A stretch of DNA of 64,000 bases from an uncultured Candidatus Saccharibacteria bacterium (GCA_964584225.1 CAZOZG010000001.1:21652-85651); one strand, 5' to 3'; counted from the first letter of the stretch, positions 1,209 to 26,163 are shown. A program made the numbers and translations. Notes: generated from the letters alone by a model not told the origin.

Positions 1209-1230
1209 CCTCTCGAACAAAAAAGTGCAC

Positions 1231-1262
1231 ACACCGGCCGCCCGAAGGGCGGCCGGTGTCGT
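1231..1262 (+). terminator. GC-rich hairpin after tuf (acaccggccgccc-gaag-ggcggccggtgt)
   Basis: 12-13 bp perfect stem directly after the tuf stop; U-tract weak. Confidence 0.5.
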
Positions 1263-1621
1263 ATACTTTGAGCATGAATTGGAGAGCTTTTGCGATGTCG
1301 TTTGGCGTTTCAATAAGCATTTTCGTTGTGTTGTTTCTGTGGATGCTCTTGGTATTGAATCAGCCGTGCCAACAAGGATCGCCATCAGATTGCGAGGCAG
1401 AAGGAATGGCAGCTGAACTCACTCTTTTTTTTGGTGGAGCCGTTTTGGTGGTCGGAGGTCTCGTCATTTCGCTTGTGAGTGCAGTTCTGTCAGGCGTTGT
1501 AGCAAAACGCAAAGAAAAAGCAACTGGCATTACGATTCTTTTGAGTCATATTGCGGTTTACACCTTCTTTGGAGTCGTTTGTGTAGTTATTGGATTTTAC
1601 CTGCTGCTACGTTTCCTCTAA
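1256..1621 (+). CDS. hypothetical small membrane protein
   Basis: 121-aa ORF with 3 predicted hydrophobic helices; start uncertain. Confidence 0.3.
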   Translation: MSYTLSMNWRAFAMSFGVSISIFVVLFLWMLLVLNQPCQQGSPSDCEAEGMAAELTLFFGGAVLVVGGLVISLVSAVLSGVVAKRKEKATGITILLSHIAVYTFFGVVCVVIGFYLLLRFL

Positions 1622-1796
1622 AGGAAAAAGGTGTCAGGTACCATTTTCTCGGCTCAAGACGATTGGGGAGATGGGGTCTGACCCCTCAGAAATGAATAAG
1701 TTGTGGCGTAATCATTCTCTCTCAACCACGCAACTGTTTGCTCGGCTCAAACGGATTGAGTTGTGTGAATTGGTGCTGTGCTATACTCTCCAAGCT

Positions 1797-2096
1797 ATGG
1801 CAAAGGTAAAGAACGAGACAGGGGAAATACTTGAAATCGTAAATTTCATCAAGGATCATATGGTGACAAACATGGCCACTAAGGACGAACTAGGTGAGTT
1901 TCGCTCGGAGGCGAATGAGCGATTTTTTGAGATTAATGGTCGACTTGTATCGATCGAACAAGATCTTAAGGACATCAAGCGTCGAATCACAACTCTTGAG
2001 GACAAACTCGAAAAGCATCGCGTCGTGACGAAAGACGAGCTCGATGAGGTCTGGAAACATGTCGCGGCAATCGAGAAGCACTTAAAGATGCATTGA
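1797..2096 (+). CDS. hypothetical coiled-coil protein
   Basis: Internal ATG at 1797 preceded by a TATACT -10-like box; Glu/Lys-rich coiled-coil-like composition. Confidence 0.35.
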   Translation: MAKVKNETGEILEIVNFIKDHMVTNMATKDELGEFRSEANERFFEINGRLVSIEQDLKDIKRRITTLEDKLEKHRVVTKDELDEVWKHVAAIEKHLKMH

Positions 2097-2157
2097 CTTC
2101 AGCGCCGGCGTTGTCACAAAGATCGTCACTTAATTTCGGACGAAGGTTCGAAAGCAG

Positions 2158-2184
2158 AAAACCCGCCGCAAGGCGGGTTTTCTC
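2158..2184 (+). terminator. rho-independent terminator (aaaacccgcc-gcaa-ggcgggtttt)
   Basis: Perfect hairpin plus T-tract; near-identical copy at 5442-5468. Confidence 0.6.
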
Positions 2185-2200
2185 ATGCCATACTTTGCAT

Positions 2201-2748
2201 ATGGAAGAGATCAAAAAATCGATCGACCAAAGCCCGTACACAAAAGATTTACCAGAAAAGCGCAGAGAATCGCTCGCAGAGTTAGCGGTTTTCGTTCGCG
2301 AACTTCAAAAGCAATATCATGTGCGCGGACATGGAATCTCGACCGAACAAGAAGCAAAAAGTATTCAAGAGCACGGCCTCCATACCAAATGGTCTGCACT
2401 CCAAGACCTCACTCATGCGCTCGAGAAAGACGAGGCGAGAGTTGCACGTCAAGTGACGTACTGGATTTTGAAGCCCGAGAATACGTTGTCCTTATCGCGG
2501 TGCCTGTGCACGACGACTATATGGCGTCAGATGTTGCCGACGAAGATCGAGATGGATGGGTAAATCGCGAGCGATCAAAGAAATTTGCGCGAGCACATGT
2601 GTTTGAACCTGCCGAGCAGCCGGAAGGGATCCGTGTGCCTGAGGGCACAAACAAACGAATTCCATCCGAGAAGATAATTGGATACTGGGATGACAAAGAG
2701 GGGAAGCTCCACATCAACCCGACCTGGCAAGCAGCCCAAGCTTTGTAA
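2201..2748 (+). pseudogene. hypothetical gene with apparent frameshift, or two overlapping small genes
   Basis: Frame 2 (2201-2563) is protein-like only until about residue 90. Frame 1 is protein-like from about 2470 to 2748. The two frames switch plausibility near 2455-2475. Confidence 0.3.
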
Positions 2749-2813
2749 CCAAAATCGTCGCTTACGTAAAGCGATTTGGTATACTGTCCCGCACTATCAA
2801 ATAAATTTCTCGT

Positions 2814-3515
2814 ATGGCCAAATCAGGACGTCCGTGGACGGTGGGTGCGCACTCTGAGCTGAAGCAGATCGACGACAATCTCTGGACAGTCGAAGACGTG
2901 TTCGCTCAAGGGATACATCGCCGAATGTGCATCATCAAGCGCTCGGATGGCGCTCTTACCTTTTTTCACGCGGTACCTGTCGATGACGCGACGCTCGCGA
3001 AGATTCGCGCGCTCGGGCAACCAAAATACATCGTCGTCGGCCACGAGCAACACACGGTGGATACGCGTGCCTTTCAAGAAAAACTCGGCCTTTCGGCATA
3101 CGGTCCGAAAAAGCTCGCCGAGGCGCTCAGAAAAAGATTCAATCTCACCGGCGCCCTTGAAGATATCCCCGCTGATCCGTCGATAGAGTACATCGAGACG
3201 CCCGGATCAAAGAAGGGCGAGACGACGTTGCTCGTAAAAAGCGGTGGCGGCTCGCGGGTGAGCATTCTCACTTCAGATGTACTCCAGAATAATCCGCAGA
3301 ATCTTCGACTTATGTTCCGCTTGCTCGGTTTTGCTGGCGGGCCAAAAGTCGTCCCGGTCTACCGCATGCTCTTTACCTCCGACAAAAAAGTCCTCAAAGA
3401 CACGCTTGTGAAATGGGCTGCCATGCCGGGCTTGAAGCGCCTCGTACCCTTCCACGGCATTATCGTCGAAGACGGGGTGAGCGAGGCAATCAAGAAAGCC
3501 GCATCAGCACTATGA
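2814..3515 (+). CDS. hypothetical protein (233 aa)
   Basis: Clean ORF with protein-like composition; no signal peptide; family not recognised with confidence. Confidence 0.5.
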   Translation: MAKSGRPWTVGAHSELKQIDDNLWTVEDVFAQGIHRRMCIIKRSDGALTFFHAVPVDDATLAKIRALGQPKYIVVGHEQHTVDTRAFQEKLGLSAYGPKKLAEALRKRFNLTGALEDIPADPSIEYIETPGSKKGETTLLVKSGGGSRVSILTSDVLQNNPQNLRLMFRLLGFAGGPKVVPVYRMLFTSDKKVLKDTLVKWAAMPGLKRLVPFHGIIVEDGVSEAIKKAASAL

Positions 3516-3943
3516 AGTCCGTCAAAACGAAAAACATCAAGCAAGTCGTGCTGTTCAAAGCGTCACCCCGTGAGCTCTATGCGATGCTCATGGATTCCAA
3601 AAGTCACGCGAAATTTACGGGCGAGAGCGCAAAGATGAGCAAAAAGATTGGCGCGAAATTTACCGCCTACGGCGGCTACATCACCGGCAAAAATCTCAAG
3701 CTGAAGCCCAGTCGCTTGATCGTCCAGGAGTGGCACATGAAAGGCTGGCCCACTGGCCACGCATCGAAAGTGATGTTTCTTTTCACAAAGACGAAAGATG
3801 GCACGAAGCTCACCTTTGGTCACACCGGCGTGCCTGCGACTAGCTACAAAGGCATCAACAGTGGGTGGAAGGAATCGTATTGGGACAAAATGAAAGTTGC
3901 GCTTGGCGAAAAGAAGGCGTCGAAGAAAAAGCGAGCCATGTAG
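3512..3943 (+). CDS. SRPBCC/Aha1-like (activator of Hsp90 ATPase homolog) domain protein
   Basis: 143-aa ORF overlapping the upstream stop by ATGA. Sequence pattern (ELYAMLMDSKSHAKFTG...GGYITGKNLKLKPSRLIVQEW) is typical of the AHSA1/SRPBCC family. Confidence 0.5.
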   Translation: MKSVKTKNIKQVVLFKASPRELYAMLMDSKSHAKFTGESAKMSKKIGAKFTAYGGYITGKNLKLKPSRLIVQEWHMKGWPTGHASKVMFLFTKTKDGTKLTFGHTGVPATSYKGINSGWKESYWDKMKVALGEKKASKKKRAM

Positions 3944-3986
3944 CTCCAGTCGTAGCGAGATTTCGCACAAAGATTTGAGCGAAGAC

Positions 3987-4017
3987 AGCCCGCCTGATGG
4001 CGGGTTTTCTGATTTTG
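3987..4017 (+). terminator. rho-independent terminator (agcccgcc-tgat-ggcgggtttt)
   Basis: Hairpin plus T-tract after 3943. Confidence 0.55.
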
Positions 4018-4061
4018 TGGAATAGTTTGGCCACGTCGAAATCCCGCAGAAGGAGACAGAC

Positions 4062-4508
4062 ATGACTCTCGACGAGTTCGTTCAAGAGGCAAAAAGAAGG
4101 AAGATTGGCGACGGCACGGTAGTCATCGATGCTCGCACGTACGCGTTCGACATCCTGCCCGCGAGCTTCCAGCCAGCAATACCGTTCTTCGTCGGGTATC
4201 CGATGGACTACCTCTTCATATCCGATGAGGTGCCGGAGCAGTATCGCATGGCAGCTCTTGCTCATGAGATCCTGTGCGAACGCTTTAGATTGAGTGGCGA
4301 TCACGCGCACTGCGAGCGCGCAGTGGCGGAAGAGATGAAGTACATCCCGGCCGATGCCGACAGGGATTACTACATTTCGCTGCGGCTCAAAATGTTCGAC
4401 TCTCTCATCGAGGTGTACGAGCGGGATGGTCAACATGATTCCGCCCGGCAAATGGTCGCACCACGCGATGCGTTCAAAGCCATGGTCGGAAAGCGATCAA
4501 TCCAATGA
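4062..4508 (+). CDS. hypothetical protein (148 aa)
   Basis: ORF preceded by an aaggaga SD. Confidence 0.45.
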   Translation: MTLDEFVQEAKRRKIGDGTVVIDARTYAFDILPASFQPAIPFFVGYPMDYLFISDEVPEQYRMAALAHEILCERFRLSGDHAHCERAVAEEMKYIPADADRDYYISLRLKMFDSLIEVYERDGQHDSARQMVAPRDAFKAMVGKRSIQ

Positions 4509-4531
4509 AGGCGACATTCGTCGCTTATCCG

Positions 4532-4565
4532 AAAGCCCCGGTCTTCGCCGGGGCTTTGCTTTTCG
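4532..4565 (+). terminator. rho-independent terminator (aaagccccgg-tcttcg-ccggggcttt)
   Basis: 10-bp stem plus T-rich tail. Confidence 0.55.
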
Positions 4566-4626
4566 CTTCCGCGATAGTGTGCTATCAATTCCCGAGCCAT
4601 CAAATAGATAGGAATAGGAGAAGAGG

Positions 4627-5331
4627 ATGCAAAGAGCAACTTCGCTCGGTGACATCACGCGAAGCGTGATGTGCATATCAAACTTCCGCCCCGGAGTGGG
4701 CCTCGATGCCTCAGGGACGGCGTGGTTCCTCAGGCCCACCGTCGTCGTGACTGCCGCGCATACTGCCTCAGGTATGAGCATGTGCCGTGAGTGGCAGCCG
4801 ATTTTGTGCAGGCACGTTGATAAAGGTGGTTCGAAGGAAGTCGCGTCTCTCAACGCCGCGCGGCTCATGAGTGTCGGGAGTCAACGCATTACTCCCGAAA
4901 CGAAGTGGCCTGTGGCTGCGACGATGTACGATGACATCGCACTTCTGGAGCTCCAGGAAGAAGTCCCTCACGCGCACATGCTCGCAGTGGAGCACGAACT
5001 TCCACCTGTGGGTACTCGCGTCGGCTGCGTCGGTTTCCCGCACGGGCAAATGGCTTTGGCGGTTGGCGAAATATTCGAATATGAATCGGGGCAGCCTCTC
5101 GCCATGAGGTTGAATCTCGGGCTCCAGGGGATCGCACCGACCGTGATGCGTTTCGGATCTTCGGGGGCGCCAATAGTGGGCCGGCGGGGTCGCGCCGTCG
5201 CGGTGCTCACGGGCTTGTGCGAGCCAGACGATCCTTTCGAACTTCTCTTCTCGCTCAGACCGAAACCGACGAACTTTGCGATTCACATCTCGCTGATCAC
5301 GCCTCTACTGCAGGAGCTGGGGCTGGGGTGA
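4627..5331 (+). CDS. trypsin-like serine peptidase (S1 family), no signal peptide
   Basis: Putative catalytic triad context: TAAH (His), DIALLEL (Asp) and GSSGAPIV (Ser). An aggagaagagg SD precedes the ATG. Confidence 0.6.
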   Translation: MQRATSLGDITRSVMCISNFRPGVGLDASGTAWFLRPTVVVTAAHTASGMSMCREWQPILCRHVDKGGSKEVASLNAARLMSVGSQRITPETKWPVAATMYDDIALLELQEEVPHAHMLAVEHELPPVGTRVGCVGFPHGQMALAVGEIFEYESGQPLAMRLNLGLQGIAPTVMRFGSSGAPIVGRRGRAVAVLTGLCEPDDPFELLFSLRPKPTNFAIHISLITPLLQELGLG

Positions 5332-5441
5332 GGTGAATCCACGAACATACCAAAAGGCATCGCCCCGCGCGCATGCCTTTTGTTTTTTTTCAATAACGCA
5401 CTAAAATCGTCGCTTAAGCGAAGAGGGAAGCCTCTTTCAAG

Positions 5442-5468
5442 AAAACCCGCCGCAAGGCGGGTTTTCTA
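5442..5468 (+). terminator. rho-independent terminator, repeat of the 2158 hairpin
   Basis: aaaacccgccgcaaggcgggtttt; lies between the two S1 peptidase genes. Confidence 0.55.
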
Positions 5469-5502
5469 CAGGTTGAGTGTCTGCTATAGTTTTCATCCCA
5501 GT

Positions 5503-6642
5503 ATGAATGACATACCAATATCTACTCGGTGGTTAAACGAAGCTGCTGACACCACAAATCAGTCAATTGCTCAAAATGTTTATCTGATCCATTGTCCCAA
5601 AACGCAAAGCAAGGGCACTGGTTTCGTGATCCCGACTGGTCATATTGTAACCAACTGGCACGTTATTAAAGATTGCGGAGCTAATGAGATAAAAGCCATA
5701 TCAACCAACGGTACGCAAATCGACTTTTCGAGCCTCATTGCAGACGAAAACCGAGATCTCGCTGTTCTCAAACCAACCATAGATTTAGGAGGTGGTTTAG
5801 AAATCCATGACGAAACCGAAAAAGTTCAAACAAAAGTATTAACGTGGGGACACCCGCTCGCATATAACGGACCTTCTCCGATTCTTTCCGTAGGCTACAT
5901 CGCTGGTTTTAATGAATACAAGAAAAATGCAACTGCGCCCGTGGTTAAGCGGTACGTCATCAACGGAGCCTTTAATCCTGGAAACTCAGGCGGACCTCTC
6001 CTCGCGGATCGAACAGCTAAAGTTGTTGGTGTGGTAGTTGCAAAACACGCGCCGATTCCGGATTTTCTACAGGCTGCTCTCGATGCCCTCAACAATAACA
6101 AGTCAGGATTCATGTACACAGCTTCGCATAATGGCGTGAGTAAAGGCTCGTTCTCTGAGGCTCAGCTAGTCGGCATGCTGCTGGATCATCAAAGAAAACT
6201 GACTCAGGTGATGATTGGAGAGGCCATATCCAGCTCTGAGCTGATAGCTTTTCTACAAGAAAGCAAAATTTTTCCCGAGAATAATGATATTCGTGGCTTG
6301 TCGGCAATATTTACGCGGTTTCTGAATTCAGTCTCAGACTTGACTGACAAATTTTATGATACTTTCGGGTTGTTTCTTGTTGTCGGGGGAAGTTTGCTGG
6401 CAGCAATGGCTATAGGCGAATTTCCAGGTCACTCAAGAATAGGCACTGATTCTGGCGAATACAGCATCATCGTAATGAAGCATCCAGTTTGGTTAAAATT
6501 GGGACTCATCGCCGTTGTGGTTGGATTTATCGTTCAGCTTTCGGACAACCTGATGACTGTTCATAAATTAGGTGGAAAAAGACTTTACTGGGCTTTAGGT
6601 GCCCTGTTAGTTTATTTGATACTTTTTGTAATGGCGAATTAG
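5503..6642 (+). CDS. trypsin-like serine peptidase (S1 family) with C-terminal transmembrane region; low-GC gene
   Basis: TNWHV (His), DLAVLK (Asp) and GNSGGPLL (Ser) motifs; two C-terminal hydrophobic helices; conspicuously AT-rich compared with neighbours; no SD. Confidence 0.55.
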   Translation: MNDIPISTRWLNEAADTTNQSIAQNVYLIHCPKTQSKGTGFVIPTGHIVTNWHVIKDCGANEIKAISTNGTQIDFSSLIADENRDLAVLKPTIDLGGGLEIHDETEKVQTKVLTWGHPLAYNGPSPILSVGYIAGFNEYKKNATAPVVKRYVINGAFNPGNSGGPLLADRTAKVVGVVVAKHAPIPDFLQAALDALNNNKSGFMYTASHNGVSKGSFSEAQLVGMLLDHQRKLTQVMIGEAISSSELIAFLQESKIFPENNDIRGLSAIFTRFLNSVSDLTDKFYDTFGLFLVVGGSLLAAMAIGEFPGHSRIGTDSGEYSIIVMKHPVWLKLGLIAVVVGFIVQLSDNLMTVHKLGGKRLYWALGALLVYLILFVMAN

Positions 6643-6693
6643 TCTAAATCGGCGATTACGAAAACTGTAAGTTCAATTTGGTATAGTGGCGGG

Positions 6694-7149
6694 ATGAATA
6701 TTCTCAAACAATGGGTGTGGCCGGTGGTGGCGGGGTTTGTGGTGGCGTCGATAATCATGCTGATTTTTGAATGGATCAATCATTATTTGTTTCCGTTGCC
6801 GGGAGGACTGGACCCGATGGATACGGCTGCAGTGCAGGCTTTTACCGCATCCTTGCCGTGGACGGTGTACATTCTCGTATTTGTCGGCTGGGCATTCGGC
6901 GCATTTGAAGGCGGCTGCACGACCGCGTGGCTCGGGAAGGGTAAGCAAATTCAACTGGTATCGGTGCTTGCCGCGATCTTGGTGGCGGCCGGCACATTCG
7001 ACATGACCGTACTCGGATTCCCCATGATTGCAATAGTCCTCGGCATCCTCGTCCTTGCGGCTTTTCCATACCTTGGCCGCCTCGCGATGAATACCTTTAT
7101 GAAAAGAAAAATGGCAGCGATGGCGGCGACCAATACTTCACAAGTATAA
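6694..7149 (+). CDS. hypothetical integral membrane protein
   Basis: 151 aa with 4 hydrophobic helices. Confidence 0.45.
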   Translation: MNILKQWVWPVVAGFVVASIIMLIFEWINHYLFPLPGGLDPMDTAAVQAFTASLPWTVYILVFVGWAFGAFEGGCTTAWLGKGKQIQLVSVLAAILVAAGTFDMTVLGFPMIAIVLGILVLAAFPYLGRLAMNTFMKRKMAAMAATNTSQV

Positions 7150-7154
7150 AAAGG

Positions 7155-7188
7155 AAAGACCGCGGCGAGATTCGCCGCGGTCTTTGTC
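7155..7188. terminator. bidirectional hairpin (gaccgcggcga-gat-tcgccgcggtc)
   Basis: Sits between convergent genes 6694-7149 (+) and 7194-7574 (-). Confidence 0.5.
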
Positions 7189-7193
7189 GGGGA

Positions 7194-7574
7194 TTACGAA
7201 GCCTTGTTCAATTGCACAGCTGCATTGTGCACGAGGCAGATGTTGGGAATGAGACCCGAAAGCAGCATCTCGCGCGGAGACTTATTGCCGAGCTCCGCAA
7301 GCGGTGCTCTGAGCCATTCTGTCAGCGGCTTGCGCTTGTTGAAACGCCGATCAAGCTGTTCCCGGATGTCGATAATGGTGCCGACGAGTTGGATCTCGCT
7401 CATCACGGGGCAATGAAGCAGTTCCGTTTTCACCGCTCCGAGTTCGGACTTTCGCCTGATCCGTTCGAAAAAGACGCGTGCGATCTGGGTCGGCGCGAAG
7501 CCGAGGTGCTTGAGGGATTCGAATGCAGTATCGATACGATTTGCAAACGACACTTTGGGGGTACGTGCTGGCAT
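7194..7574 (-). CDS. Xre-like/DUF2384-like (antitoxin ParS/MbcA-type C-terminal domain) protein, module copy 1
   Basis: C-terminal W...LGNKSPREMLLSG pattern resembles the DUF2384 domain. An aaggagag SD precedes the start. Paralog of 12971-13408. Confidence 0.5.
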   Translation of the reverse strand: MPARTPKVSFANRIDTAFESLKHLGFAPTQIARVFFERIRRKSELGAVKTELLHCPVMSEIQLVGTIIDIREQLDRRFNKRKPLTEWLRAPLAELGNKSPREMLLSGLIPNICLVHNAAVQLNKAS

Positions 7575-7590
7575 GGTGATCTCTCCTTTT

Positions 7591-7615
7591 TGCCGGTCTG
7601 CACCCTAGCACAAAA
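7591..7615 (-). promoter_or_regulatory. conserved upstream motif copy a (tgccggtctgcaccctagcacaaaa)
   Basis: One of four near-identical ~22-nt motifs placed 25-40 nt upstream of each module gene. It contains an extended -10-like TGcTAGGGT on the minus strand. Confidence 0.45.
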
Positions 7616-7707
7616 TCTTTTTTTAAGAAATGAGCCAGCACGCGTACAAAGGAACGGCCGCGCGGTGAAAACCGCGCGGCTCTGATATGTCGATCGCCAA
7701 GTCGTTC

Positions 7708-7797
7708 TTAGCCGATGAGGTCGAAATAGTTGATCACGGTGAGCACGACCACTACAACCGCGACGAGGAACAAAAAGAATTTCACACACCCTGGCAT
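7708..7797 (-). CDS. 29-aa hydrophobic micropeptide (MPGCVKFFLFLVAVVVVVLTVINYFDLIG)
   Basis: Starts 2 nt after the stop of the CPFC membrane-protein gene, with an aaggag SD inside that gene's 3' end. A positional homolog exists in module copy 2. Confidence 0.3.
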   Translation of the reverse strand: MPGCVKFFLFLVAVVVVVLTVINYFDLIG

Positions 7798-7799
7798 GG

Positions 7800-8117
7800 C
7801 TACTTCTTCTCCTTGAAGTTGGGAATCGTCTGGATGGTTACGCCACTTATGATTGCTGCGACACCGACAACCGCAGCCAGAGATACAAGCACGTCGATGA
7901 CAAAAAACACGCGTAAGACCACTGGCCGGTAGATCACGATCAGTGGGAAGGCGACCCAATAGCTCGTACAGAACGGGCAACTGAGGAACGATTTGGGACC
8001 GAATTTTTTGGTGAACCAGTCCCGGAGCGGCTCACCGATATCAGCTTTCGTCAGGGTGACAGAAATCGCTGACACGGCGAAACCAAGGTAGATGATACCG
8101 ATGAACTGATCAATCAT
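7800..8117 (-). CDS. small 3-TM membrane protein with CPFCTSY motif (DUF1360-like), module copy 1
   Basis: About 105 aa; about 50% identical to 12531-12872; conserved SCPFCTS(Y/F) and IYRP motifs. Family assignment is from memory. Confidence 0.5.
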   Translation of the reverse strand: MIDQFIGIIYLGFAVSAISVTLTKADIGEPLRDWFTKKFGPKSFLSCPFCTSYWVAFPLIVIYRPVVLRVFFVIDVLVSLAAVVGVAAIISGVTIQTIPNFKEKK

Positions 8118-8133
8118 GATCGAGACCCTCTCT

Positions 8134-8157
8134 TCCGACCGGCACCCTACCATAAAA
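8134..8157 (-). promoter_or_regulatory. conserved upstream motif copy b (tccgaccggcaccctaccataaaa)
   Basis: Same motif family as 7591, 12889 and 13424. Confidence 0.45.
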
Positions 8158-8199
8158 CGTGTTTTCGAGAAATCGGGAACCATTTGTTACAATCCGCGC

Positions 8200-8631
8200 A
8201 TGGCAGCAGTAAAGACGCATGTGACGAAGACGAGCCTCGCGAAATATATCGCGAGTATTCCAGACGCTGTGCGACGCGCCGAGGCGAAGAAGGTCGCCGC
8301 GCTTCTGCAGGCGATCACCAAAGAAAAGCCGACTGTGTGGAGCAACGGTATGGTCGGGTACGGCATGTACCACTTCAAATCGGAGCACACGTCGCACGAG
8401 GGCGATTGGCCGATGGCCGCCTTTTCCGCGCGCAAAGCCAACATCAGCATCTATCTCATGGGCGGGATGGGCGCTGCGAAAAAGCAGGGCGCACTTTTGA
8501 AAAAGCTCGGGCCGCACACGGCTTCGAGCGGCGGATGCGTCTATATCAAGCGTTTGGATAAAGTTGACATGAGCGTCCTCAAGAAAGTGATCGCAGCGGG
8601 TTACGCCGACATGAAAAAGAAATACGGCTGA
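8200..8631 (+). CDS. DUF1801 (YdhG-like) domain protein
   Basis: 143 aa; WSNGMVGYG...ISIYLMGG pattern typical of DUF1801; TACAAT -10-like box upstream. Confidence 0.5.
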   Translation: MAAVKTHVTKTSLAKYIASIPDAVRRAEAKKVAALLQAITKEKPTVWSNGMVGYGMYHFKSEHTSHEGDWPMAAFSARKANISIYLMGGMGAAKKQGALLKKLGPHTASSGGCVYIKRLDKVDMSVLKKVIAAGYADMKKKYG

Positions 8632-8632
8632 T

Positions 8633-8860
8633 ATGAAAAAACTCCCGGCGTGGACGCACAAGCTCATCATGCCAGCGCTCCTTACGTTTATCATGACCGC
8701 AATCGTCTGCGCGCTCGCGACGATTCGCGCCGCAGGAGCGAACGCGACGATCGGGCTGTGGTTTGGCTCGTGGATGTTTGCGTGGGCCGTCGCGTTTCCG
8801 ACGGTACTCGTCGTCCTTCCGCTTCTCAACACATTCCTCAAGCTCATCATCGAAGACTAG
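8633..8860 (+). CDS. DUF2798-like small membrane protein
   Basis: 75 aa and 2 TM; pattern MKKLP...FIMT.IV...AFPTVL as in DUF2798. Confidence 0.45.
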   Translation: MKKLPAWTHKLIMPALLTFIMTAIVCALATIRAAGANATIGLWFGSWMFAWAVAFPTVLVVLPLLNTFLKLIIED

Positions 8861-8918
8861 CCGTGTCCTCGGGTGAGCTTTCTGTGCTATGCTCTCGGCA
8901 TATTCATAATTTTTTGCT

Positions 8919-18572: not shown

Positions 18573-18814
18573 AAGCGCGAGCGACCCTCCCGGGGTTGAT
18601 TGTCCTGTGCGGATTTCTTCTTTCGTACGCGATTGTCGCCGCTGGCGGCAAAGGTGGGGGAGGTGGCTACGTCCCGCCGCCGCCGCCAGCCGCGTGTTGC
18701 TCCACCTACTACTATTGCAGCGGCAACGACTTAGGTAAGCACCACGCAGATTGCACTGACTCTGTCATTCAGACATGTCCGGACGGCTGCAGAAACAGCG
18801 CGTGTAATCCATAG
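18569..18814 (+). CDS. small secreted Cys-rich protein (signal peptide, poly-Gly/Pro, YYCSGNDL...TC..GC..C module)
   Basis: 81 aa; ATGA overlap with the lnt stop; shares the Cys module with 18819, 41628 and 51355. Confidence 0.45.
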   Translation: MKARATLPGLIVLCGFLLSYAIVAAGGKGGGGGYVPPPPPAACCSTYYYCSGNDLGKHHADCTDSVIQTCPDGCRNSACNP

Positions 18815-18818
18815 TCAT

Positions 18819-20963
18819 ATGCGCCTGCGTTACGCACTCATCGGTTCACTTCTCCTCATGCCGCTCGTGGCATTTGCGGGAGGAAAAGGCGGCTACGCGC
18901 AAGGCTACTACCAGGGCTACTACGCACCGCCGTGTCATGACCCGTACTACTATTGTACTGGCAATGATTTGTACGAAAAATTGACCGACGACACCGACCA
19001 ATTCGTCAAAACGTGCGCCAATGGTTGTAACAGTGCGACAGGTGCGTGTATTGACGAAAACCCACCGCAGCCCGTGACCTACACGCCGCCAAGCTGCACG
19101 ATCACATTCGACAAAAATCCCGTGGCACCCGGAGAAAGTACGACCATGCATTGGAGTTCCAGCAATGCGTATTCGATGTACATCAATACGGTTGGTTATG
19201 TCGACCCGTCCGGCTCGGCAACGGTGAACGTCAATCAGACCACCGACCTTTCGGGCGTTGCGACTGGATACAATGCGCCCGCAGGAGCGCCAGCGCCAAC
19301 AAATCAGACGAGCGCGCCGCCGCCCCCGTCGAACACCGTTACCTTCACGACACCGGGCACGTACGAATACACCTGGACGGCACCGACTGGCGTCACGCAA
19401 GTGCACGCGACAGTCGTCGGCGGCGGCGGCGGCGGCGCGGGCGGCCAGGCGCCCGACGACGATGGAGGCTGCGATTGTATTTTGGGCTCGGGCGGCGGGG
19501 CGGGTGGCGCACAGATTAATGAAACCATCAGCGTGACGCCAGGTCAGACGTATCAAGTTATTGTCGGACGAGGTGGTCTCGGTGGTATTCATCGCTCGGT
19601 GTCGTACTGCCCGAGTACCTTCCCCGGCGCGAACGGTGGTGATTCGTCGTTTGGCACGCTCGTAGCGCATGGAGGACAAGCAGGATCCGGCATTTACACA
19701 GGCGGAGCTGGTGGCACGCCAGGCGGGACTGCGGGCTGCGGCGGCACACTCTACTCTGGCGGCTCGAGCTGCGGCGGCACGAACGCCACTTCTCACGGAG
19801 CTGGCGGCACGGGCGGCGGCTGCTACGTCAACGGAGGTAATGGCGCTGATGGCTACGTTTCAATCTCGTGGGACTCGCCTGCGCCTTCTACCGAAACGCC
19901 ACCACCCAACAGCGTGTCTGTCTCGTGTGCGGCAGTGCTCACAACTGATGCCTCACTCGCGCCGTCGGCCCGCATCAGAGCTGACTCAGTCATTGTTGCG
20001 CTTGGTGATTCGATTGGCGTCCACGCCGATTACACCGTCGGCACAGGTGATACCTTAGGATCATCGCGTATCGATTCGCCAGAAGGTAACGCAGTGACCG
20101 GTAGTTCTGCGCTTGCGCATCGCGACTACAGCTTTGCTCCGGCGGTCACCGGTCTTTACACGTTCTTTGCTCGACTCGCGAGCGCAAAATTCCCGACACT
20201 CAAGACATACGATTCGGTCGGGGTACAAGTCTCAGAGAACACGGCGTGTGGCAGCGGTCAGTATTTCGCGACTGATCAGCCCTACGGTGGAGAATGTATT
20301 TGTAAAATAAATAACGCGTTGCCGATCAATGGGCAGTGCGAGTCGTCGTGCACGCTCGGCCAGCACTCCTCAGGCGGCGTATGCTTGTGCGACAACAATG
20401 ACACTGCCCCCGTTTTTGGTGAGTGTCATATGTGCACGGTGGGTACGCCAGTGTGCGCCGGGCCCGATGTCGATGGTGACAGCATCGGTGACAGCATCGC
20501 GCACATTTCAAATGCGCTCACATGTGCCGTAGATACTAGCAACCTCACTGCCTGCAGCAGCGGCTATCACTGCGTATCGGGTCAATGCACACATATGCCA
20601 CCGACTGCGTACTTCCGCGCGCTTCCTGGTGTTGTCGCGAAAGGTAACGCGTCGTCGCTTGCGTGGTTTGCCGCTGGCGTGCAGCCAAGCTCGTGCTCGG
20701 TCACGGGCCCCAACGGTCAAGCCTTTAGTTCGGTCGCGATTGGATCGGCACAAGCCTCCGGCAGTAGCACCGGCGCATGCTCGAGTGCGAACACAAGTTG
20801 CCCGCTCGGCTCTGTGTGTTTGGGGACGCAGTGCATCAACGCGCAACCGACAGCGGCTATCACGTCGCGCAGCACGTTCAATCTTGCGTGCACCGGGCTC
20901 GATGGCACTCCGCTGCGTCAAAGTGTGACGATTGGTATCGCGCCCACACATAGTGAGCACTAA
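18819..20963 (+). CDS. large secreted glycine-rich cell-surface protein (714 aa)
   Basis: Signal peptide; Cys module; CTITFDKNP Ig-like domain; Gly-rich beta-type domain (TPGTYEYTWTAPTGVTQVHATVVGGGGGG...VSISW); C-terminal Ig-like domain ending PTHSEH. Confidence 0.7.
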   Translation: MRLRYALIGSLLLMPLVAFAGGKGGYAQGYYQGYYAPPCHDPYYYCTGNDLYEKLTDDTDQFVKTCANGCNSATGACIDENPPQPVTYTPPSCTITFDKNPVAPGESTTMHWSSSNAYSMYINTVGYVDPSGSATVNVNQTTDLSGVATGYNAPAGAPAPTNQTSAPPPPSNTVTFTTPGTYEYTWTAPTGVTQVHATVVGGGGGGAGGQAPDDDGGCDCILGSGGGAGGAQINETISVTPGQTYQVIVGRGGLGGIHRSVSYCPSTFPGANGGDSSFGTLVAHGGQAGSGIYTGGAGGTPGGTAGCGGTLYSGGSSCGGTNATSHGAGGTGGGCYVNGGNGADGYVSISWDSPAPSTETPPPNSVSVSCAAVLTTDASLAPSARIRADSVIVALGDSIGVHADYTVGTGDTLGSSRIDSPEGNAVTGSSALAHRDYSFAPAVTGLYTFFARLASAKFPTLKTYDSVGVQVSENTACGSGQYFATDQPYGGECICKINNALPINGQCESSCTLGQHSSGGVCLCDNNDTAPVFGECHMCTVGTPVCAGPDVDGDSIGDSIAHISNALTCAVDTSNLTACSSGYHCVSGQCTHMPPTAYFRALPGVVAKGNASSLAWFAAGVQPSSCSVTGPNGQAFSSVAIGSAQASGSSTGACSSANTSCPLGSVCLGTQCINAQPTAAITSRSTFNLACTGLDGTPLRQSVTIGIAPTHSEH

Positions 20964-21473: not shown

Positions 21474-24329
21474 ATGAAACACGTCATACACAATCTGTCA
21501 GTCGTCGTCCTTGGTCTCGGTTTCCTCATCGTGCCTTCGCTTCTGTATGCATATGGCGAAGGGAATTACTACAGCGAGGGGTATTACTATAGCCAATCGT
21601 ATTACGAAGGATTTTATTACAGCCAGGGTTCATACTCATCCAACGCGAAAAGTTGTGATCAGACATTTTCAACACCCGGTCCCGGTACATTTACTGTCCC
21701 AGCAGGTGTCACATCGCTTCGAGTAGTCGCAGTCGGCGGTGGCGGTGGCGGTGGCGCGGGTGCCGGCGGTTGGGGAAGTGGCGGTGGCGGTGGTTGCAGC
21801 GGGGCGGTAGTGGGAAACACGCTCACCGTTACACCTGGGCAAGCAATCCCAGTCTATGTTGGTTATGGCGGAGCAGGAGGTAATGGCGCCGGTCAGTGCA
21901 CTATCTCAGGGTTTCCATGGTGCGGTTCGTATAATCCAAGCACAAATGGTTCTACAGGCGGTGATTCTGGGTTTGGCTCAATCGTTGCGCACGGCGGAAG
22001 CTGGGGAAGGACGGGATTTTACAATCTGTTCAATCAATATCCGGGTGGTAGTGGAGGCGGCTCTGGCGGTGGCGGGGGAGGAAACGGCTGGCCAGGGTTT
22101 TATGCACAAGCTGGAAATGGAGGAATGGCGGGCGGACAGACAAATAGCCAAGGTGCCGGTGGATATTGCACGGGAGGTGGTTGGGGCTGGAACGGTACGT
22201 CGCTCATCAAACAGGTCCCGTATGCAGCTGGCCAGGGGGGCACTGTCGGCGGCGGGTACTACGGTGGCGGCGGTGGCGGCGGACTCATTTTGAACGGCAG
22301 CAGCATCAAGGGCGGTGACGGCCAGTCAAGCCCCGGTAACGGCGGCGTCGGCTACGGAGCGGGCGGCGGCGGTTCGAATCTCGACAACACTGGCGTCGGC
22401 GGCAGTGGGGCACAAGGCATAGTCTACGTTGAATGGGATCCATCTTCGTCTGGTTCGTGTTCTGCGCCACCACCACCCCCTCCGCCGACGGCGCAATGCT
22501 CAATCACATTTGATAAAAATCCAATCAATTTCGGCGATGGCACTACTATTCATTGGACGTCGAACGGAGGTGATCTCTACATCAACAACATCGGATACGT
22601 GAATGCAACAGGGACGGCCGTCGTCCAGCCAGCGACGACGACTGATTATTCAGGAGTTGTCTCCTCCAGCACCTCACTGGCATTCGCGCCGTCTCAGCGA
22701 GGAAAAGTCGCCGGCGCCGGGTCGCAATCGTACATAACGCCGGGCACCTATCAGTTCACGATTCCGAATTACACCGGGACGCTCACGGCCACAGTAAACG
22801 GCGCCGGGGGAGCAGGCGGCTGGGGAGGTTGCGGCGTCGATTCCGGTGGATCAAATCAGTGTCTATATGGCGCAGGCCAAGGAGTCGCATCTGGTTCAGG
22901 CGAGTCGTCTTCATTTGGGTCGGCCATGGCGGGTGGCGGCGGAAATGGTGCCGAAGGTGGGAGGGGTATTACTAGCGACCCTTGTAATGGAGGACCCGGC
23001 GCAGATGGCAACCCGGGAACAGGGACTGTCTCTGGCGGAGGCGCTCTCGGCGGCGGAGGGGGCGATGGATACACAGGAGGATGGTGCAACGGAGGAAAAG
23101 GAGGCACGGGAGGATCTGGAGGTAAGACGACTCAAACATTCACTACGTCTACACTTGCACCCGGGTCCACTGTGACAGTCGTCGTTGGTGCAGGTGGCAT
23201 CGGCTGGGTGGGGTATTGCAATCAGACTTGTGCCGGTTCTGGCCAAAACGGCTCCGTCTCAATCTCCTGGACAGACGCATCAAACCCACCTCCACCCACC
23301 TGCTCCAACGGTCTCAATATCAGCCAATATCCCAGTTGCTCTTGCCCGAGCGGGCAGTCCCAAAGTGGTTCGACGTGTGTGGCGCCCGCGGCACCGAAAG
23401 TTGTTGCAACCTGCCCCGTCACCCTCACCGTCAACAAACCCACAACTCCCACTGCACACATCAGTGCCGATTTCACGAAGCTCACCGTGGGTGAAACCAC
23501 CGGGATCCACGCAGACTTCTCAGCGGGCTCGGGAGATGCAATCGCGGAAGACAACATCGATTCGCCGGAGGGGACGGGCCTTGGTGCGACGACCAACCCT
23601 GATTCGCGCAAAGACATCACCTTCACCGCGTCCACGACGGGGACCTACACCTTCTACGCGCGCATGCGCACGGCAAATTTTCCCGAGTGGAAGTCGTACG
23701 ACAGTGTCACGATCACGGTCTCACCGTCGGCTGAATGCAATACGAACAACGACTGCGCGACCGATGAAATTTGTTCGACATCATCGATGTGCGAATTCCT
23801 CGATTGCGGTGTCGATACCAACATGCATGCAGAAAATCACGAGTGTGTCTGTGATGCCAATTACGCACTCGGCAGCGACAATATCTGCCACCTCGAATGC
23901 ATCGATGCATTTATCTGTGCCAACGCCGACGGCACGCCAGACCCGGGTGGCACCTACAGCGCTCACCAGGATACGAGCTGCACGCTCGGCGCACCGCAGT
24001 TATGTCAGTACGGATGTCTCAATGGCATTTGTGAAAGTCCAACACCGGCCTTTACCTTCAGAATTGTCCCAAGCGCAGTCGTCAAAGGAAACACGACGAC
24101 AATCATCTGGAATGCGACGCATGTGAGTTCCTGTACACTCACTGGTGACAACACAGACGCGTGGAGTTGCGACGATACTGCCTCCTGCACGACGCTTCAT
24201 ACCGTCACCACCGCTCCGATCCAGGGCAAGACGACCTACACACTTTCGTGTCTGCCGCTTGCCGGTCAGCCAGCGATTCCTGATCAAAAGAAGGCAGTCA
24301 CTGTCACGCCCACGCATAGCGAACACTAG
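21474..24329 (+). CDS. giant secreted glycine-rich cell-surface protein (951 aa), paralog of 18819-20963
   Basis: Signal peptide plus Tyr-rich low complexity; CSITFDKNP domain; two Gly-rich domains; PPPP linker; shared central domain (IDSPEG...YTFYARM); Cys-rich EGF-like segment; C-terminal domain ending PTHSEH. Confidence 0.7.
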   Translation: MKHVIHNLSVVVLGLGFLIVPSLLYAYGEGNYYSEGYYYSQSYYEGFYYSQGSYSSNAKSCDQTFSTPGPGTFTVPAGVTSLRVVAVGGGGGGGAGAGGWGSGGGGGCSGAVVGNTLTVTPGQAIPVYVGYGGAGGNGAGQCTISGFPWCGSYNPSTNGSTGGDSGFGSIVAHGGSWGRTGFYNLFNQYPGGSGGGSGGGGGGNGWPGFYAQAGNGGMAGGQTNSQGAGGYCTGGGWGWNGTSLIKQVPYAAGQGGTVGGGYYGGGGGGGLILNGSSIKGGDGQSSPGNGGVGYGAGGGGSNLDNTGVGGSGAQGIVYVEWDPSSSGSCSAPPPPPPPTAQCSITFDKNPINFGDGTTIHWTSNGGDLYINNIGYVNATGTAVVQPATTTDYSGVVSSSTSLAFAPSQRGKVAGAGSQSYITPGTYQFTIPNYTGTLTATVNGAGGAGGWGGCGVDSGGSNQCLYGAGQGVASGSGESSSFGSAMAGGGGNGAEGGRGITSDPCNGGPGADGNPGTGTVSGGGALGGGGGDGYTGGWCNGGKGGTGGSGGKTTQTFTTSTLAPGSTVTVVVGAGGIGWVGYCNQTCAGSGQNGSVSISWTDASNPPPPTCSNGLNISQYPSCSCPSGQSQSGSTCVAPAAPKVVATCPVTLTVNKPTTPTAHISADFTKLTVGETTGIHADFSAGSGDAIAEDNIDSPEGTGLGATTNPDSRKDITFTASTTGTYTFYARMRTANFPEWKSYDSVTITVSPSAECNTNNDCATDEICSTSSMCEFLDCGVDTNMHAENHECVCDANYALGSDNICHLECIDAFICANADGTPDPGGTYSAHQDTSCTLGAPQLCQYGCLNGICESPTPAFTFRIVPSAVVKGNTTTIIWNATHVSSCTLTGDNTDAWSCDDTASCTTLHTVTTAPIQGKTTYTLSCLPLAGQPAIPDQKKAVTVTPTHSEH

Positions 24330-24377
24330 CCTGTGCATATCTCACTGTTGCTCCTCGCGCGTTGGTACAATGGTTCC

Positions 24378-24761
24378 ATGATGGTTCACGTGCGTCACAC
24401 GCTCATCGCCGCATTCACTGCGCTCTTCGTTGCGGCGGTCATCGTCCCGGTGCTCGCACACGCACAAGAGACCGATCTAAAGACAGCGATTCGCGCCGCG
24501 ATCAGCGCCGACGCACGATCTGCTCACCTCACCTCCGCGCAGCTTGATGCCTTGGCGACTGCGCTCACGACACAAGCACAGTCCAACGGTGTGACAGCGC
24601 AAGATATCGAGTGGAAGCCGACGAGCGCCCTTTCGCCCGCACCCGTCTCCAATGGCTCAGACATGACTGGTCTATGGATGTTGACGCTTTTCTTTGCATC
24701 CATGCTCGGCCTTGCGACTATCGCAGCGATGATGGAGCAATCAAAAGCACAAATGGCGTAA
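24378..24761 (+). CDS. hypothetical protein with N- and C-terminal hydrophobic segments
   Basis: 128 aa; Ala-rich helical middle. Confidence 0.35.
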   Translation: MMVHVRHTLIAAFTALFVAAVIVPVLAHAQETDLKTAIRAAISADARSAHLTSAQLDALATALTTQAQSNGVTAQDIEWKPTSALSPAPVSNGSDMTGLWMLTLFFASMLGLATIAAMMEQSKAQMA

Positions 24762-24783
24762 GTGTCCTTCGGGGTCGGGACCT

Positions 24784-26052
24784 ATGATAACGAACGAAGC
24801 GCTCGATTTTATACGGCAGCAGCGAGCTCAGGGTATTGCTGACAACGATATTAAGGGTGCGCTCGCGCGAAGTGGGTGGAAACCGGAGGATATAAATGAG
24901 GCGTTTGTCGCGGCGGCGCAGCCTGCGGCTGCGCCGCCGCCCGCATCCCCAATTGCCGGCGGTGAAAAACCACTTTCCGTTGGCTCATTTATCGGCACGT
25001 CGTGGGAGATCTTCAAGAAACGTCCGTGGTTTTTGATCGGTGTGTGGCTTTTGTCGACCATCGGTTTCTTCGCCGTATCCGGCATATCAAGCGGCATCAC
25101 GACATCCATCGGACACGGGGCGCAATTCATCAGCCTCGTCGTCAATTGGATCATCCAGATTCTCTACGGCATGGGATTGATCGCGTTCTTTTTGAAGGCA
25201 CACGACGACATTAATGCTGTTTCGTTTAAAGATCTCTGGCATCCAAGAAAGTTTTGGAGTTATGTCGGCGCCTACGCACTCTACATCATCGCGATTCTCG
25301 TCGGATACATCCTGCTTCTCGTTCCTGGCGTGATTGCGATGATCGCCTTTTTCTTCGCTCCATACTTTGTCATTGATAAAGGCATGGGTCCCATCGAGGC
25401 GATGAAAGCATCAGCTCGCATCACGAAAGGCAATCGTCTCCGCTTGCTTGCGCTTTTTGGCGCGTGCGGATTACTCGCACTCCTGGGCTTCATTGCACTG
25501 ATTGTTGGAATACTGGTCGTCATCCCAGTCGTCTCACTTATCTACGTGAATGCATACCGAAGGCTCTCGGCGGCAGCGGATGCAAAGATGCCACGGCAAA
25601 AGCTCACCGGCGGCGAGCTCACACTCGTTATTCTCGGGTGTCTCATACCGGGCGCCGTTGCCGTCATCGGTCTTTTGGCTTCGGTCGTCCTCGTGAGTCT
25701 GAATTCTGCGCGTGAAAAAGGCCGCGACGCGATACGATTTTCTGACGTGAAACAACTCGAAATAGCGCTTACGCTCTATCAAGATCAAAACAATTCGTAT
25801 CCCGCGACGCTCGAGTTGCTGCAGCCGGATTTCATTGCTGCCGTACCGACTGACCCGCAAACAAATCAATCGTTTGACTATGAACCTGCCGCGGATGGCA
25901 AATCCTACCAATTGTGTACCACCTACGAGACATCGACATCGTACGACAAATGCGTCTCTTCGGATGATGGTGGTGTATCGCCAGGCGCCACAAACACGAC
26001 AGACTCCACCGGCACATCTGCGTCGCCACTCGATACGACCCCGACACTGTAA
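24784..26052 (+). CDS. membrane protein with DUF975/GDPD-membrane-like core and an internal pseudopilin-like (type IV pilin N-terminal-like) segment
   Basis: Polytopic core; then TM LTLVILGCLIPGAVAVIGLLASVVLVSL followed by NSAREKGRDAIRFSDVKQLEIALTLYQDQNNSYP, which closely resembles the post-cleavage helix of pilins/pseudopilins; Ser/Thr-rich tail. Confidence 0.5.
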   Translation: MITNEALDFIRQQRAQGIADNDIKGALARSGWKPEDINEAFVAAAQPAAAPPPASPIAGGEKPLSVGSFIGTSWEIFKKRPWFLIGVWLLSTIGFFAVSGISSGITTSIGHGAQFISLVVNWIIQILYGMGLIAFFLKAHDDINAVSFKDLWHPRKFWSYVGAYALYIIAILVGYILLLVPGVIAMIAFFFAPYFVIDKGMGPIEAMKASARITKGNRLRLLALFGACGLLALLGFIALIVGILVVIPVVSLIYVNAYRRLSAAADAKMPRQKLTGGELTLVILGCLIPGAVAVIGLLASVVLVSLNSAREKGRDAIRFSDVKQLEIALTLYQDQNNSYPATLELLQPDFIAAVPTDPQTNQSFDYEPAADGKSYQLCTTYETSTSYDKCVSSDDGGVSPGATNTTDSTGTSASPLDTTPTL

Positions 26053-26056
26053 TTTG

Positions 26057-26085
26057 CATTTTGTAGTTGCTTCGCGTATAGTGCC
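26057..26085 (+). promoter_or_regulatory. sigma70-like promoter TTGCAT-17-TATAGT upstream of rplC
   Basis: Good -35/-10 match with 17-nt spacer. Confidence 0.45.
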
Positions 26086-26130
26086 TCGCACGCCATGTCC
26101 CCATAGGGACCAATAGCGAGGCAGAGAGCT

Positions 26131-26157
26131 GCCCGCTATCGCGGGCGTTTCGTTTTT
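26131..26157 (+). promoter_or_regulatory. leader hairpin plus U-tract (gcccgc-tatc-gcgggc gtttcgttttt) in the rplC 5' UTR, putative attenuator
   Basis: Terminator-like structure between promoter and ATG; analogous hairpin before rpsS. Confidence 0.35.
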
Positions 26158-26163
26158 AAAGAT

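Follow-up and report, generated by a model that had tools for sequence, protein, structure and literature searches.

Separation of tuf, rpsJ and rplC in a Kaiserbacteria-type genome, with a gene-flux interval and a probable resident envelope operon between the three

In the 64,000-nt stretch of DNA analysed here (CAZOZG010000001.1:21652-85651 of assembly GCA_964584225.1, one strand, deposited as an uncultured Candidatus Saccharibacteria bacterium), which we call the window, the genes tuf (EF-Tu), rpsJ (S10) and rplC (L3) stand apart, with 15,334 bp between tuf and rpsJ (gap 1) and 9,204 bp between rpsJ and rplC (gap 2). The initial annotation had taken the gaps for two large accessory insertions into this genome. 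Its coordinates and its account of the gene content of the gaps were borne out by Pfam searches and open reading frame (ORF) calls; the insertions themselves were not, since in none of 160 related loci, wherever rplC is in view, does rpsJ adjoin it. The array is broken up throughout the clade, and the break-up did not take place in this small genome. We consider it likely that in a lineage of the Kaiserbacteria type (Paceibacteria, Candidate Phyla Radiation (CPR)) the str/S10 array has long been split into independent units, gap 1 being an interval of gene flux and gap 2 the seat of a resident operon.

Three units and their conserved signals

The three core genes and the signals predicted around them are the following.

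9 to 1208, + strand: tuf (EF-Tu), the left conserved anchor (Pfam GTP_EFTU, D2 and D3), with nucleotide similarity to about 75 relatives over 1-1214 and none beyond
1231 to 1259, + strand: terminator-like hairpin 3' of tuf, 13-bp stem; two relatives with about 93% amino acid identity in tuf carry a terminator of their own
16503 to 16531, + strand: predicted rpsJ promoter, TTGCAA-17-CATACT, 11 nt before the ATG
16543 to 16959, + strand: rpsJ (S10), monocistronic (Pfam Ribosomal_S10), with nucleotide conservation limited to 16518-16965
16972 to 16998, + strand: predicted terminator hairpin 3' of rpsJ, 12-bp stem and U7, its loop holding the ATG of the Lnt-like gene of gap 2
26054 to 26082, + strand: predicted rplC promoter, TTGCAT-17-TATAGT, a motif found also in relatives
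26092 to 26157, + strand: structured rplC leader of 66 nt, with covariation in helices P1 and P2 of a 25-sequence alignment
26164 to 26760, + strand: rplC (L3), which opens what is left of the S10-type cluster and is followed by L4, L23 and L2 (Pfam)

The window does not hold a canonical S10 operon, in which rpsJ comes first and is contiguous and co-transcribed with rplC-rplD-rplW-rplB: a 9.2-kb spacer, the terminator at 16972-16998 and the separate rplC promoter and leader come between, and rpsJ and rplC are never contiguous in the relatives. The mechanical ORF of rpsJ opens at a TTG at 16510, and relatives align from the ATG at 16543. The encoded S10 has an N-terminal Lys/Ala-rich extension of about 40 amino acids that is conserved in relatives, and uS10 has been described as larger in CPR bacteria (PMC9297842).

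The comparison set consisted of 80 GTDB species-representative genomes and 80 metagenome loci, anchored on S10; all 160 are of the Kaiserbacteria/Paceibacteria type, with S10 identities of 69-94%. The rpsJ-rplC gap measures 551-8245 bp in 20 resolved loci of the GTDB set, and 33 further loci of that set show no rplC within the 10 kb fetched. On the closed 859-kb chromosome CP066682.1, rpsJ lies at 193304-193717 and rplC begins at 209771 on the same strand, which leaves a gap of 16 kb. Between tuf and rpsJ there are 37-9831 bp in 48 loci, and 10 others exceed 10 kb; every locus showing the pair has the order tuf...rpsJ...rplC on one strand. At one locus (L069:2040-3900) rpsJ is directly followed by rpsS-rplV-rpsC, and the rplC-rplD-rplW-rplB block is not at that position. 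We found no published account of this tuf/rpsJ/rplC split in the literature.

Similarity to the relatives ends sharply at the edges of the units. When positions 1-33000 of the window were compared with all loci by BLASTN, the similarity blocks coincided with the core units, namely 1-1214 (tuf), 16518-16965 (rpsJ with its -10 region), 26092-26748 (rplC with about 70 nt upstream) and then L4 onward; the sole block inside the gaps is 14502-14745. Pairs of relatives with 88-93% nucleotide identity in rpsJ lose all similarity within a few nucleotides of its stop codon, and two of the loci, L142 and L156, are collinear through tuf and rpsJ over 10 kb on the upstream side and have no relation on the downstream side. 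Two contigs encode an EF-Tu about 93% identical in amino acids to that of the window; in these, similarity ends 1-5 nt past the tuf stop codon, and what follows is a Fic gene or a SocA_Panacea pair.

Most of 74 distinct rpsJ-upstream sequences keep the arrangement TTGCGT-17-(G)TGCATACT-CTGCGGGTTCT-ATG, whatever lies further upstream, and in the relatives the 11-nt spacer CTGCGGGTTCT between the -10 element and the ATG is constant. The promoter that the initial annotation had proposed for rpsJ can be seen in the window; what falls away is the idea that it was newly acquired here, the promoter being conserved across the clade. A generic sigma-70 promoter scan gave no enrichment over shuffles, so our promoter calls rest on conservation and not on the scan. 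Because only 11 nt separate the -10 element from the ATG, the rpsJ mRNA is predicted to be near-leaderless, with a leader of about 5 nt or less that would lack a Shine-Dalgarno sequence. A different element lies at the 3' end of rpsJ in about 12 relatives (e.g. L002:10415-10480, L004, L006, L009, L091, L123, L127 and L152) and not in the window: the rpsJ TGA is the first paired triplet of a hairpin of about 17 bp with a covarying stem and a constant UCCAA loop, and behind it stands another covarying hairpin whose loop is CC(A).

The promoter and leader hairpin assigned to rplC from the outset hold up, with the TTGCAT-17-TATAGT motif, the hairpin and a U-run all in place. The leader consists of a hairpin P1 at 26097-26110 (GUCCC/GGGAC), a helix P2 (AAUAGC with GCUAU) in which 26113-26117 pair with 26135-26139, and a GC-rich terminator stem in which 26131-26136 pair with 26141-26146, followed by the U-run at 26148-26157; the terminator stem and P2 overlap, by the 5' arm of the former and the 3' strand of the latter. 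P1 and P2 were recovered by RNAalifold. Across the 25 aligned sequences, 89% of the P1 and P2 cells are paired, compared to 21-43% when the partner is slid by one to three columns, and 26 cells show double-sided changes against 6.2 +/- 3.1 in shuffles. In the same sequences 82% of the cells of the terminator stem are paired.

A covariance model of the leader found 30 matches in 1.88 Mb, all of them on the coding strand directly upstream of rplC and one for each locus that contains the rplC upstream region (besides the window, 29 related loci have the element, e.g. L162:9932-9995); five of the 30 are in loci outside the seed, including the closed genome. These loci thus contain a covarying, conserved structure directly upstream of a ribosomal-protein operon, which is one of the marks of an autoregulatory leader. 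Since P2 overlaps the terminator, attenuation is suggested, and the rplC leader is a candidate new ribosomal-protein attenuator. It may let L4 or L3 control expression from rplC onward, rpsJ now being uncoupled from that control. Rfam has no family matching at gathering score, the best hits on 25950-26300 being unrelated small RNAs (E = 2.2 and 6.5), and we found no published description of an rplC leader of this kind in the literature, including a 2020 survey of ribosomal leaders (PMC7247131).

Contents of the two gaps

The features of gap 1 are listed here; the interval also holds membrane proteins and proteins with no assigned family.

1209 to 16502, both strands: gap 1, hypervariable cargo (Pfam), with nearly zero nucleotide coverage by the 160 relatives except at 14502-14745
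2156 to 2183, 3983 to 4010 and 5440 to 5467: palindromic, terminator-like repeat AGAAAACCCGCCGCAAGGCGGGTTTTCT (repeat search)
3512 to 3943: AHSA1/SRPBCC protein (Pfam)
4627 to 5331 and 5380 to 6642: two Trypsin_2 (S1) proteases (Pfam)
7194 to 8183, - strand: module A, with an Xre_MbcA_ParS_C-like gene (7194-7574), a small ORF and a DUF1360 'CPFC' membrane protein (7800-8183)
9373 to 9990: TMEM175 (Pfam)
11600 to 11950, + strand: F7-family protein of about 115 amino acids without a Pfam match, paralogue of 14371-14748
12531 to 13408, - strand: module B, with a DUF1360 'CPFC' gene (12531-12872) and an Xre-like gene (12971-13408)
13562 to 14314: EEP (Pfam)
14371 to 14748, + strand: F7-family protein, the sole gene of gap 1 conserved at the nucleotide level in relatives
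15459 to 15941: cupin (Pfam)
within gap 1: DUF1801 (Pfam)

Gap 1 is a truly variable interval and a hotspot of gene flux. Of its 25 families in the window only three (F7, the EEP gene and F47) occur in any relative, and F7 was found by tblastn in the tuf-rpsJ interval of about 38 of the 160 relatives. In the 80 reference loci the same interval holds 186 ORFs that fall into 146 families, 108 of them singletons; the mean Jaccard index between loci is 0.011, and a common family is seen in 10% of locus pairs. When 150 representative gap proteins of the relatives were surveyed with Pfam, 134 families came up, among them TPR, ABC_tran, Fic, AbiEii-like AAA_21, the YafQ toxin, methyltransferases, GNAT, MbnB/TglH, BKACE and ATP-sulfurylase; NCBIfam yielded no names for the conserved F7, F8 and F21 families, nor for other proteins without an assigned family. 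The closest homologues of the TMEM175 protein (66-67% identity) are in Azambacteria and Paceibacterota genomes, in an unrelated context. As such homologues occur in other CPR bacteria at unrelated loci, the cargo appears to be drawn from a CPR gene pool and relocated. The word hotspot, which the initial annotation applied to the whole region, therefore suits the tuf-rpsJ interval, which spans 37 bp to more than 10 kb with content that is almost never shared, and suits gap 2 only in part.

Module B is a permuted paralogue of module A, and both include a small ORF. A 28-nt motif, TTTTGTGCTAGGGTGC..CGGCA, precedes each module gene (7588-7615 and 8130-8157 in A, 12886-12913 and 13421-13448 in B) and is probably a shared operator or promoter. 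The modules do not qualify as toxin-antitoxin modules of the Xre/MbcA/ParS type: the Xre-like proteins score 20.8 and 19.2 bits, below the Pfam Xre_MbcA_ParS_C cut-off of 24.5, and their partner is a DUF1360 membrane protein and not a RES/ParT toxin. A reading of gap 1 as a defence island was also rejected: PADLOC matched no more than the trypsin domain of RT-Protease_XI, and a reverse transcriptase is missing. Terminator-like hairpins number 41 in positions 1-17000 against 19.0 +/- 4.5 in shuffles. The palindromic repeat seems to be a bidirectional terminator typical of the lineage; in the form AAAACCCGCC-NNNN-GGCGGGTTTT it also stands directly after tuf in two relatives, L163 (4393-4421) and L164.

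Gap 2 is a single, tightly packed array of co-directional genes.

16983 to 18572, + strand: Lnt-like N-acyltransferase, the first gene of gap 2 (LNT_N, E = 1.1e-11; CN_hydrolase, E = 1.5e-9)
18569 to 18814, + strand: secreted Cys-rich peptide of 81 amino acids with an AGGKGGGGG motif, 64% identical in relative L165
18819 to 20963, + strand: glycine-rich secreted giant 1 (GlyR1, family F1), 714 amino acids (Pfam Gly_rich_2), 61% identical over 544 amino acids in L165
21014 to 21472, + strand: F21-family small secreted protein, 152 amino acids, with homologues in 24 related loci, where they follow rpsJ or precede tuf
21474 to 24329, + strand: glycine-rich secreted giant 2 (GlyR2, family F1), 951 amino acids (Pfam Gly_rich_2)
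24333 to 24761, + strand: F8-family small membrane protein, 142 amino acids, found just upstream of rplC in 28 related loci
24784 to 26052, + strand: DUF975-like membrane protein (sub-threshold), specific to the window, with no homologue in the related loci

This order is shared with the relative L165, where rpsJ is followed by Lnt (53%), the small peptide (64%), GlyR1 (61%), a GlyR2-like C-terminus, F8, the leader and rplC; the L165 Lnt, directly after rpsJ, is the closest homologue of the one in the window, and tuf lies about 0.4 kb from rpsJ there. A second relative with an Lnt-like gene (L166, 44%) has the F21-Lnt-giant module upstream of tuf and a minimal rpsJ-F8-rplC arrangement, and F1, F21 and PKD proteins occupy the fusA/tuf slot of many relatives. 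F8 is the most constant resident of the rpsJ-rplC slot and the sole gene in the minimal gaps of 0.55-0.9 kb. In the relatives gap 2 holds 510 ORFs in 278 families, 62% of locus pairs have a family in common, and the mean Jaccard index is 0.166. Four of the six window families are shared with relatives (F1, F2, F8 and F21); in F2, a product of single-linkage clustering, the Lnt-like gene is lumped with unrelated proteins, and F2 was not used as evidence. On account of the L165 synteny and of the module's presence in other slots, we take gap 2 to be an inherited, fast-evolving envelope operon able to occupy different slots. The view of gap 2 as accessory cargo is thus contradicted by the order shared with L165 and by the recurrence of F21, F1 and F8 in the slot in many relatives. 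Sharing of gap content among relatives, which the initial annotation had named as the observation that would speak against insertion, is found in part for gap 2, and the content of gap 1 is almost unique.

In the Lnt-like protein the E-K-C triad motifs PES, K..LPDGEYVP and FCNE align with PET, K..VPFGEYVP and ICYE of Lnt (5n6m). By domains and triad it qualifies as a putative apolipoprotein N-acyltransferase. An AGGKGG(G) motif stands at the end of the signal peptide of secreted proteins beside Lnt in all three contexts examined for it (window 16983-20963, L165:1624-5886 and L166:1201-5387), GlyR1 carrying it at its N-terminus; it occurs in no other secreted protein among about 1400 ORFs of the 80 reference loci, where the only other regular-expression matches are in ribosomal protein L6. 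These proteins have no lipobox cysteine. The Lnt-like enzyme and the AGGKGG proteins may be an enzyme-substrate pair. The giants end in [VI]-N-[IV]-x-P-x-[FWYH]-x-E-x, a pattern present in 35 of 54 F1 family members and in three of the other ORFs (about 1390). Their C-terminal domain, shared by F1 members in 35 related loci, ends in the window in IAPTHSEH (20940-20963), the PTHSEH C-terminus of GlyR1, and in VTPTHSEH (24306-24329), and it may be a sorting or anchoring signal. At locus P0058 a giant protein again stands before rplC.

A YcaO cyclodehydratase, a SagB-like nitroreductase, a PQQ beta-propeller protein and TPR proteins are encoded between rpsJ and rplC in about 20 relatives (examples of the YcaO/nitroreductase block are L061:17138-18634, L007:9275-10003, L005:3565-5223 and L162:2344-4053). 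This block beside ribosomal genes, which is not in the gap of the window, looks like a cluster of the RiPP (ribosomally synthesised and post-translationally modified peptide) type.

Further along the window the ribosomal cluster is interrupted a third time.

28855 to 30060, + strand: RNase III-like gene, 401 amino acids, between rplB and rpsS (Pfam Ribonucleas_3_3; TIGR02191 sub-threshold)

This interruption is not conserved in relatives, in which the gap between L2 and S19 (rplB-rpsS) is 30-2876 bp. The spc-type part contains two ORFs without a Pfam match, at 34309-34863 (184 amino acids, between rplE and rpsH) and 39013-39561 (182 amino acids, between secY and gmk), and downstream of the ribosomal cluster 44949-47768 encodes a protein of 939 amino acids with weak TraG-D_C and TrwB (type IV coupling protein) signatures. 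At 63758-63831 ARAGORN places a tRNA-Ile with anticodon UAU, which matches the Rfam tRNA family at 69.8 bits; in most bacteria AUA is read by a lysidine-modified CAU tRNA.

Origin of the gaps and their contents

Of integration by a mobile element, as implied by the initial annotation, there are no marks here. No integrase or transposase appeared in Pfam scans of all sizeable ORFs in 1209-26163, no direct repeats bracketing either gap were found, and there is no tRNA or tmRNA before position 57972. The tetranucleotide composition of gap 1 is native (z at most 0.44), and the z of about 3 in gap 2 is attributed to Gly-codon repeats; the cumulative GC skew of the window is monotonic. We therefore rejected an integrative element, there being no recombinase, tRNA target, flanking repeat or compositional anomaly. 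Two marks of a hotspot free of mobile elements are present: the same core genes bound the gaps in many genomes, and family turnover is high, strongly so in gap 1 and partly in gap 2.

Two discrete and fairly recent mobile or accessory insertions into a contiguous tuf-rpsJ-rplC array of this genome would accommodate the nearly unique content of gap 1, its toxin-antitoxin-like Xre modules and the short tuf-rpsJ distance in L165. Such insertions are nevertheless very unlikely in our estimate, as the rpsJ/rplC break, the rpsJ promoter and the rplC leader are clade-wide in the 160 relatives and the marks of insertion just described (integrase, tRNA, direct repeat, foreign composition) are missing; for gap 2 they are contradicted by its synteny in L165. 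Less improbable, if still unlikely, are large spacers that are purely ancestral, and which lineage-specific loss and rapid divergence have since eroded while nothing new was acquired. This would be in keeping with the recurrence of F7 in gap 1 and of F21, F1 and F8 in gap 2, with the semi-conserved YcaO/nitroreductase/PQQ/TPR block in gap 2 of many relatives, with the native composition and with the lack of excess tuf/S10 discordance (see below). However, 146 families among 186 gap-1 ORFs, with so few locus pairs sharing any, would demand an implausibly large ancestral spacer, unrelated DNA begins right after the stop codon in pairs that are still 88-93% identical in rpsJ, the closest TMEM175 homologue sits in another lineage at an unrelated locus, and the Lnt-giant module takes different slots in different genomes.

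An error of assembly or binning, joining ribosomal genes to unrelated DNA, is brought to mind by the source, a metagenome-assembled contig, and by N runs in some reference loci. We give it hardly any credence: an independent Logan assembly (L001) has the junction from the cupin gene through rpsJ to Lnt at 100% identity, so that this junction is neither a chimera nor an assembly artefact, the architecture recurs in 160 independent assemblies including a closed chromosome, and tetranucleotide composition is uniform across gap 1.

The likely alternative, a long-standing split into independent units, can be put as follows. The array would have been broken into the transcription units tuf, rpsJ alone and rplC onward. 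Each of these has signals conserved in the clade, and non-ribosomal genes fill the spaces between them in every relative examined. The tuf-rpsJ slot acts as a high-turnover cargo bay, filled here by 15.3 kb of almost entirely unique DNA in which only F7 recurs, and the rpsJ-rplC slot houses an inherited surface operon that evolves fast, expands by duplication and in some relatives sits in the fusA/tuf slot. Cargo might be exchanged without a mobile element, by double homologous recombination in the conserved flanking genes, or alternatively by illegitimate joins at the terminator and promoter boundaries.

Several points count against this account or limit it. The pairwise identities of tuf and S10 correlate with rho 0.28, in a test of low power, compared to 0.25 for L3-L4 and 0.29 for L4-L2 as adjacent controls; since the tuf-S10 value is not below those of the controls, there is no excess discordance at the slots. 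(A rho of about 0.04 in a first run and an apparent discordance between L023 and L142, two loci of the same genome, were both due to N-masked bases.) ORF calling in the relatives was crude, taking the longest ORF with some antisense artefacts, which inflates the number of singletons, and the census of the relatives' gaps shows only the 25 commonest Pfam families, so that rare recombinases are possible. Promoters, terminators and the function of the leader are predictions. The relatives are all Kaiserbacteria-like, which leaves the age and extent of the split without bounds. The closest in the collections reach 88% (S10, in metagenomes) and 82% (L3) amino acid identity, and all window proteins tested except tuf are singletons at 90% clustering; because the collections hold no closer relative, gains and losses cannot be dated, nor can gain be separated from differential loss.

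More speculatively, the split may amount to a rewiring of S10 control, a possibility that we entertain with considerable doubt. S10, which is also NusE, would be made from a near-leaderless monocistronic mRNA, a new attenuator sensing a ribosomal protein would stand before rplC, and in the spaces between the transcription units terminator- and promoter-bounded cassettes would be exchangeable, swapped via the conserved flanks and carrying host-interaction surface proteins such as the Lnt-like enzyme and the AGGKGG secreted proteins ending in P-x-[FWYH]-x-E.

Implications and relation to known systems

Sixteen syntenic ribosomal proteins, S10 and L3 among them, are standard markers for uncultured bacteria and are usually assumed to lie on one contig. 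In this large CPR lineage 0.5-16 kb separate S10 from L3 and the distance from tuf can exceed 10 kb, which affects such marker-scaffold assumptions and the curation of metagenome-assembled genomes. The lineage also shows that the S10 operon can be dismantled at its start, provided that each piece gets its own control, and it supplies, in the rplC leader, a new candidate ribosomal-protein leader RNA for testing. By amplifying between two conserved genes, the accessory gene pool of Kaiserbacteria could be sampled at the tuf-rpsJ slot, and their fast-evolving surface proteins could be reached likewise at the rpsJ-rplC slot.

In cyanobacteria, plastids and archaea, rpsJ is found in the str cluster after tuf, detached from rplC and co-transcribed with tuf. 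The arrangement in the window is similar in that rpsJ is not co-transcribed with rplC, and it differs in that rpsJ is also detached from tuf, at distances that can exceed 10 kb, and by prediction is read from a promoter of its own into a near-leaderless mRNA. With a classical genomic island the region shares a large accessory block between core genes and toxin-antitoxin-like modules; unlike such an island, it has no integrase, tRNA or tmRNA target, att repeats or compositional shift in gap 1.

The closest parallel for the gaps is provided by hotspots of horizontal gene transfer that lie between core genes and are free of mobile elements, and for which double recombination in the flanking core genes has been proposed as the means of turnover (Oliveira, Touchon, Cury and Rocha 2017, PMC5635113). 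Shared with these are the same bounding core genes, high family turnover, the lack of integrases and transposases, and toxin-antitoxin-like cargo. Those hotspots were described within species, whereas ours extend over a class-level clade and lie inside a ribosomal-protein array, and the published model has excess recombination in the flanks, of which our low-power test detected none.

For the leader, the L4-responsive S10 leader of E. coli comes to mind, which has five hairpins, lies upstream of rpsJ and is limited to Gammaproteobacteria (PMC3616713). Common to both is a 5' leader that is structured, contains an intrinsic terminator and stands before the operon of L3, L4, L23, L2 and onward, and an attenuation-type design is plausible here as well. 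The present leader, however, excludes rpsJ, consists of about 66 nt with P1, P2 and a terminator, and has no sequence or Rfam similarity to that of E. coli. The only published leader candidate upstream of rplC is the archaeal L4 leader of Archaeoglobi, before rplC-rplD-rplW-rplB (Eckert and Weinberg 2020, PMC7247131); it is alike in standing directly upstream of rplC, but it is archaeal and its motif unrelated, and that survey lists no leader from CPR bacteria or Parcubacteria. Core-gene-flanked hotspots and ribosomal-protein leaders are thus kinds of system already known, and what is new here is the clade-wide dismantled array together with a previously undescribed rplC leader.

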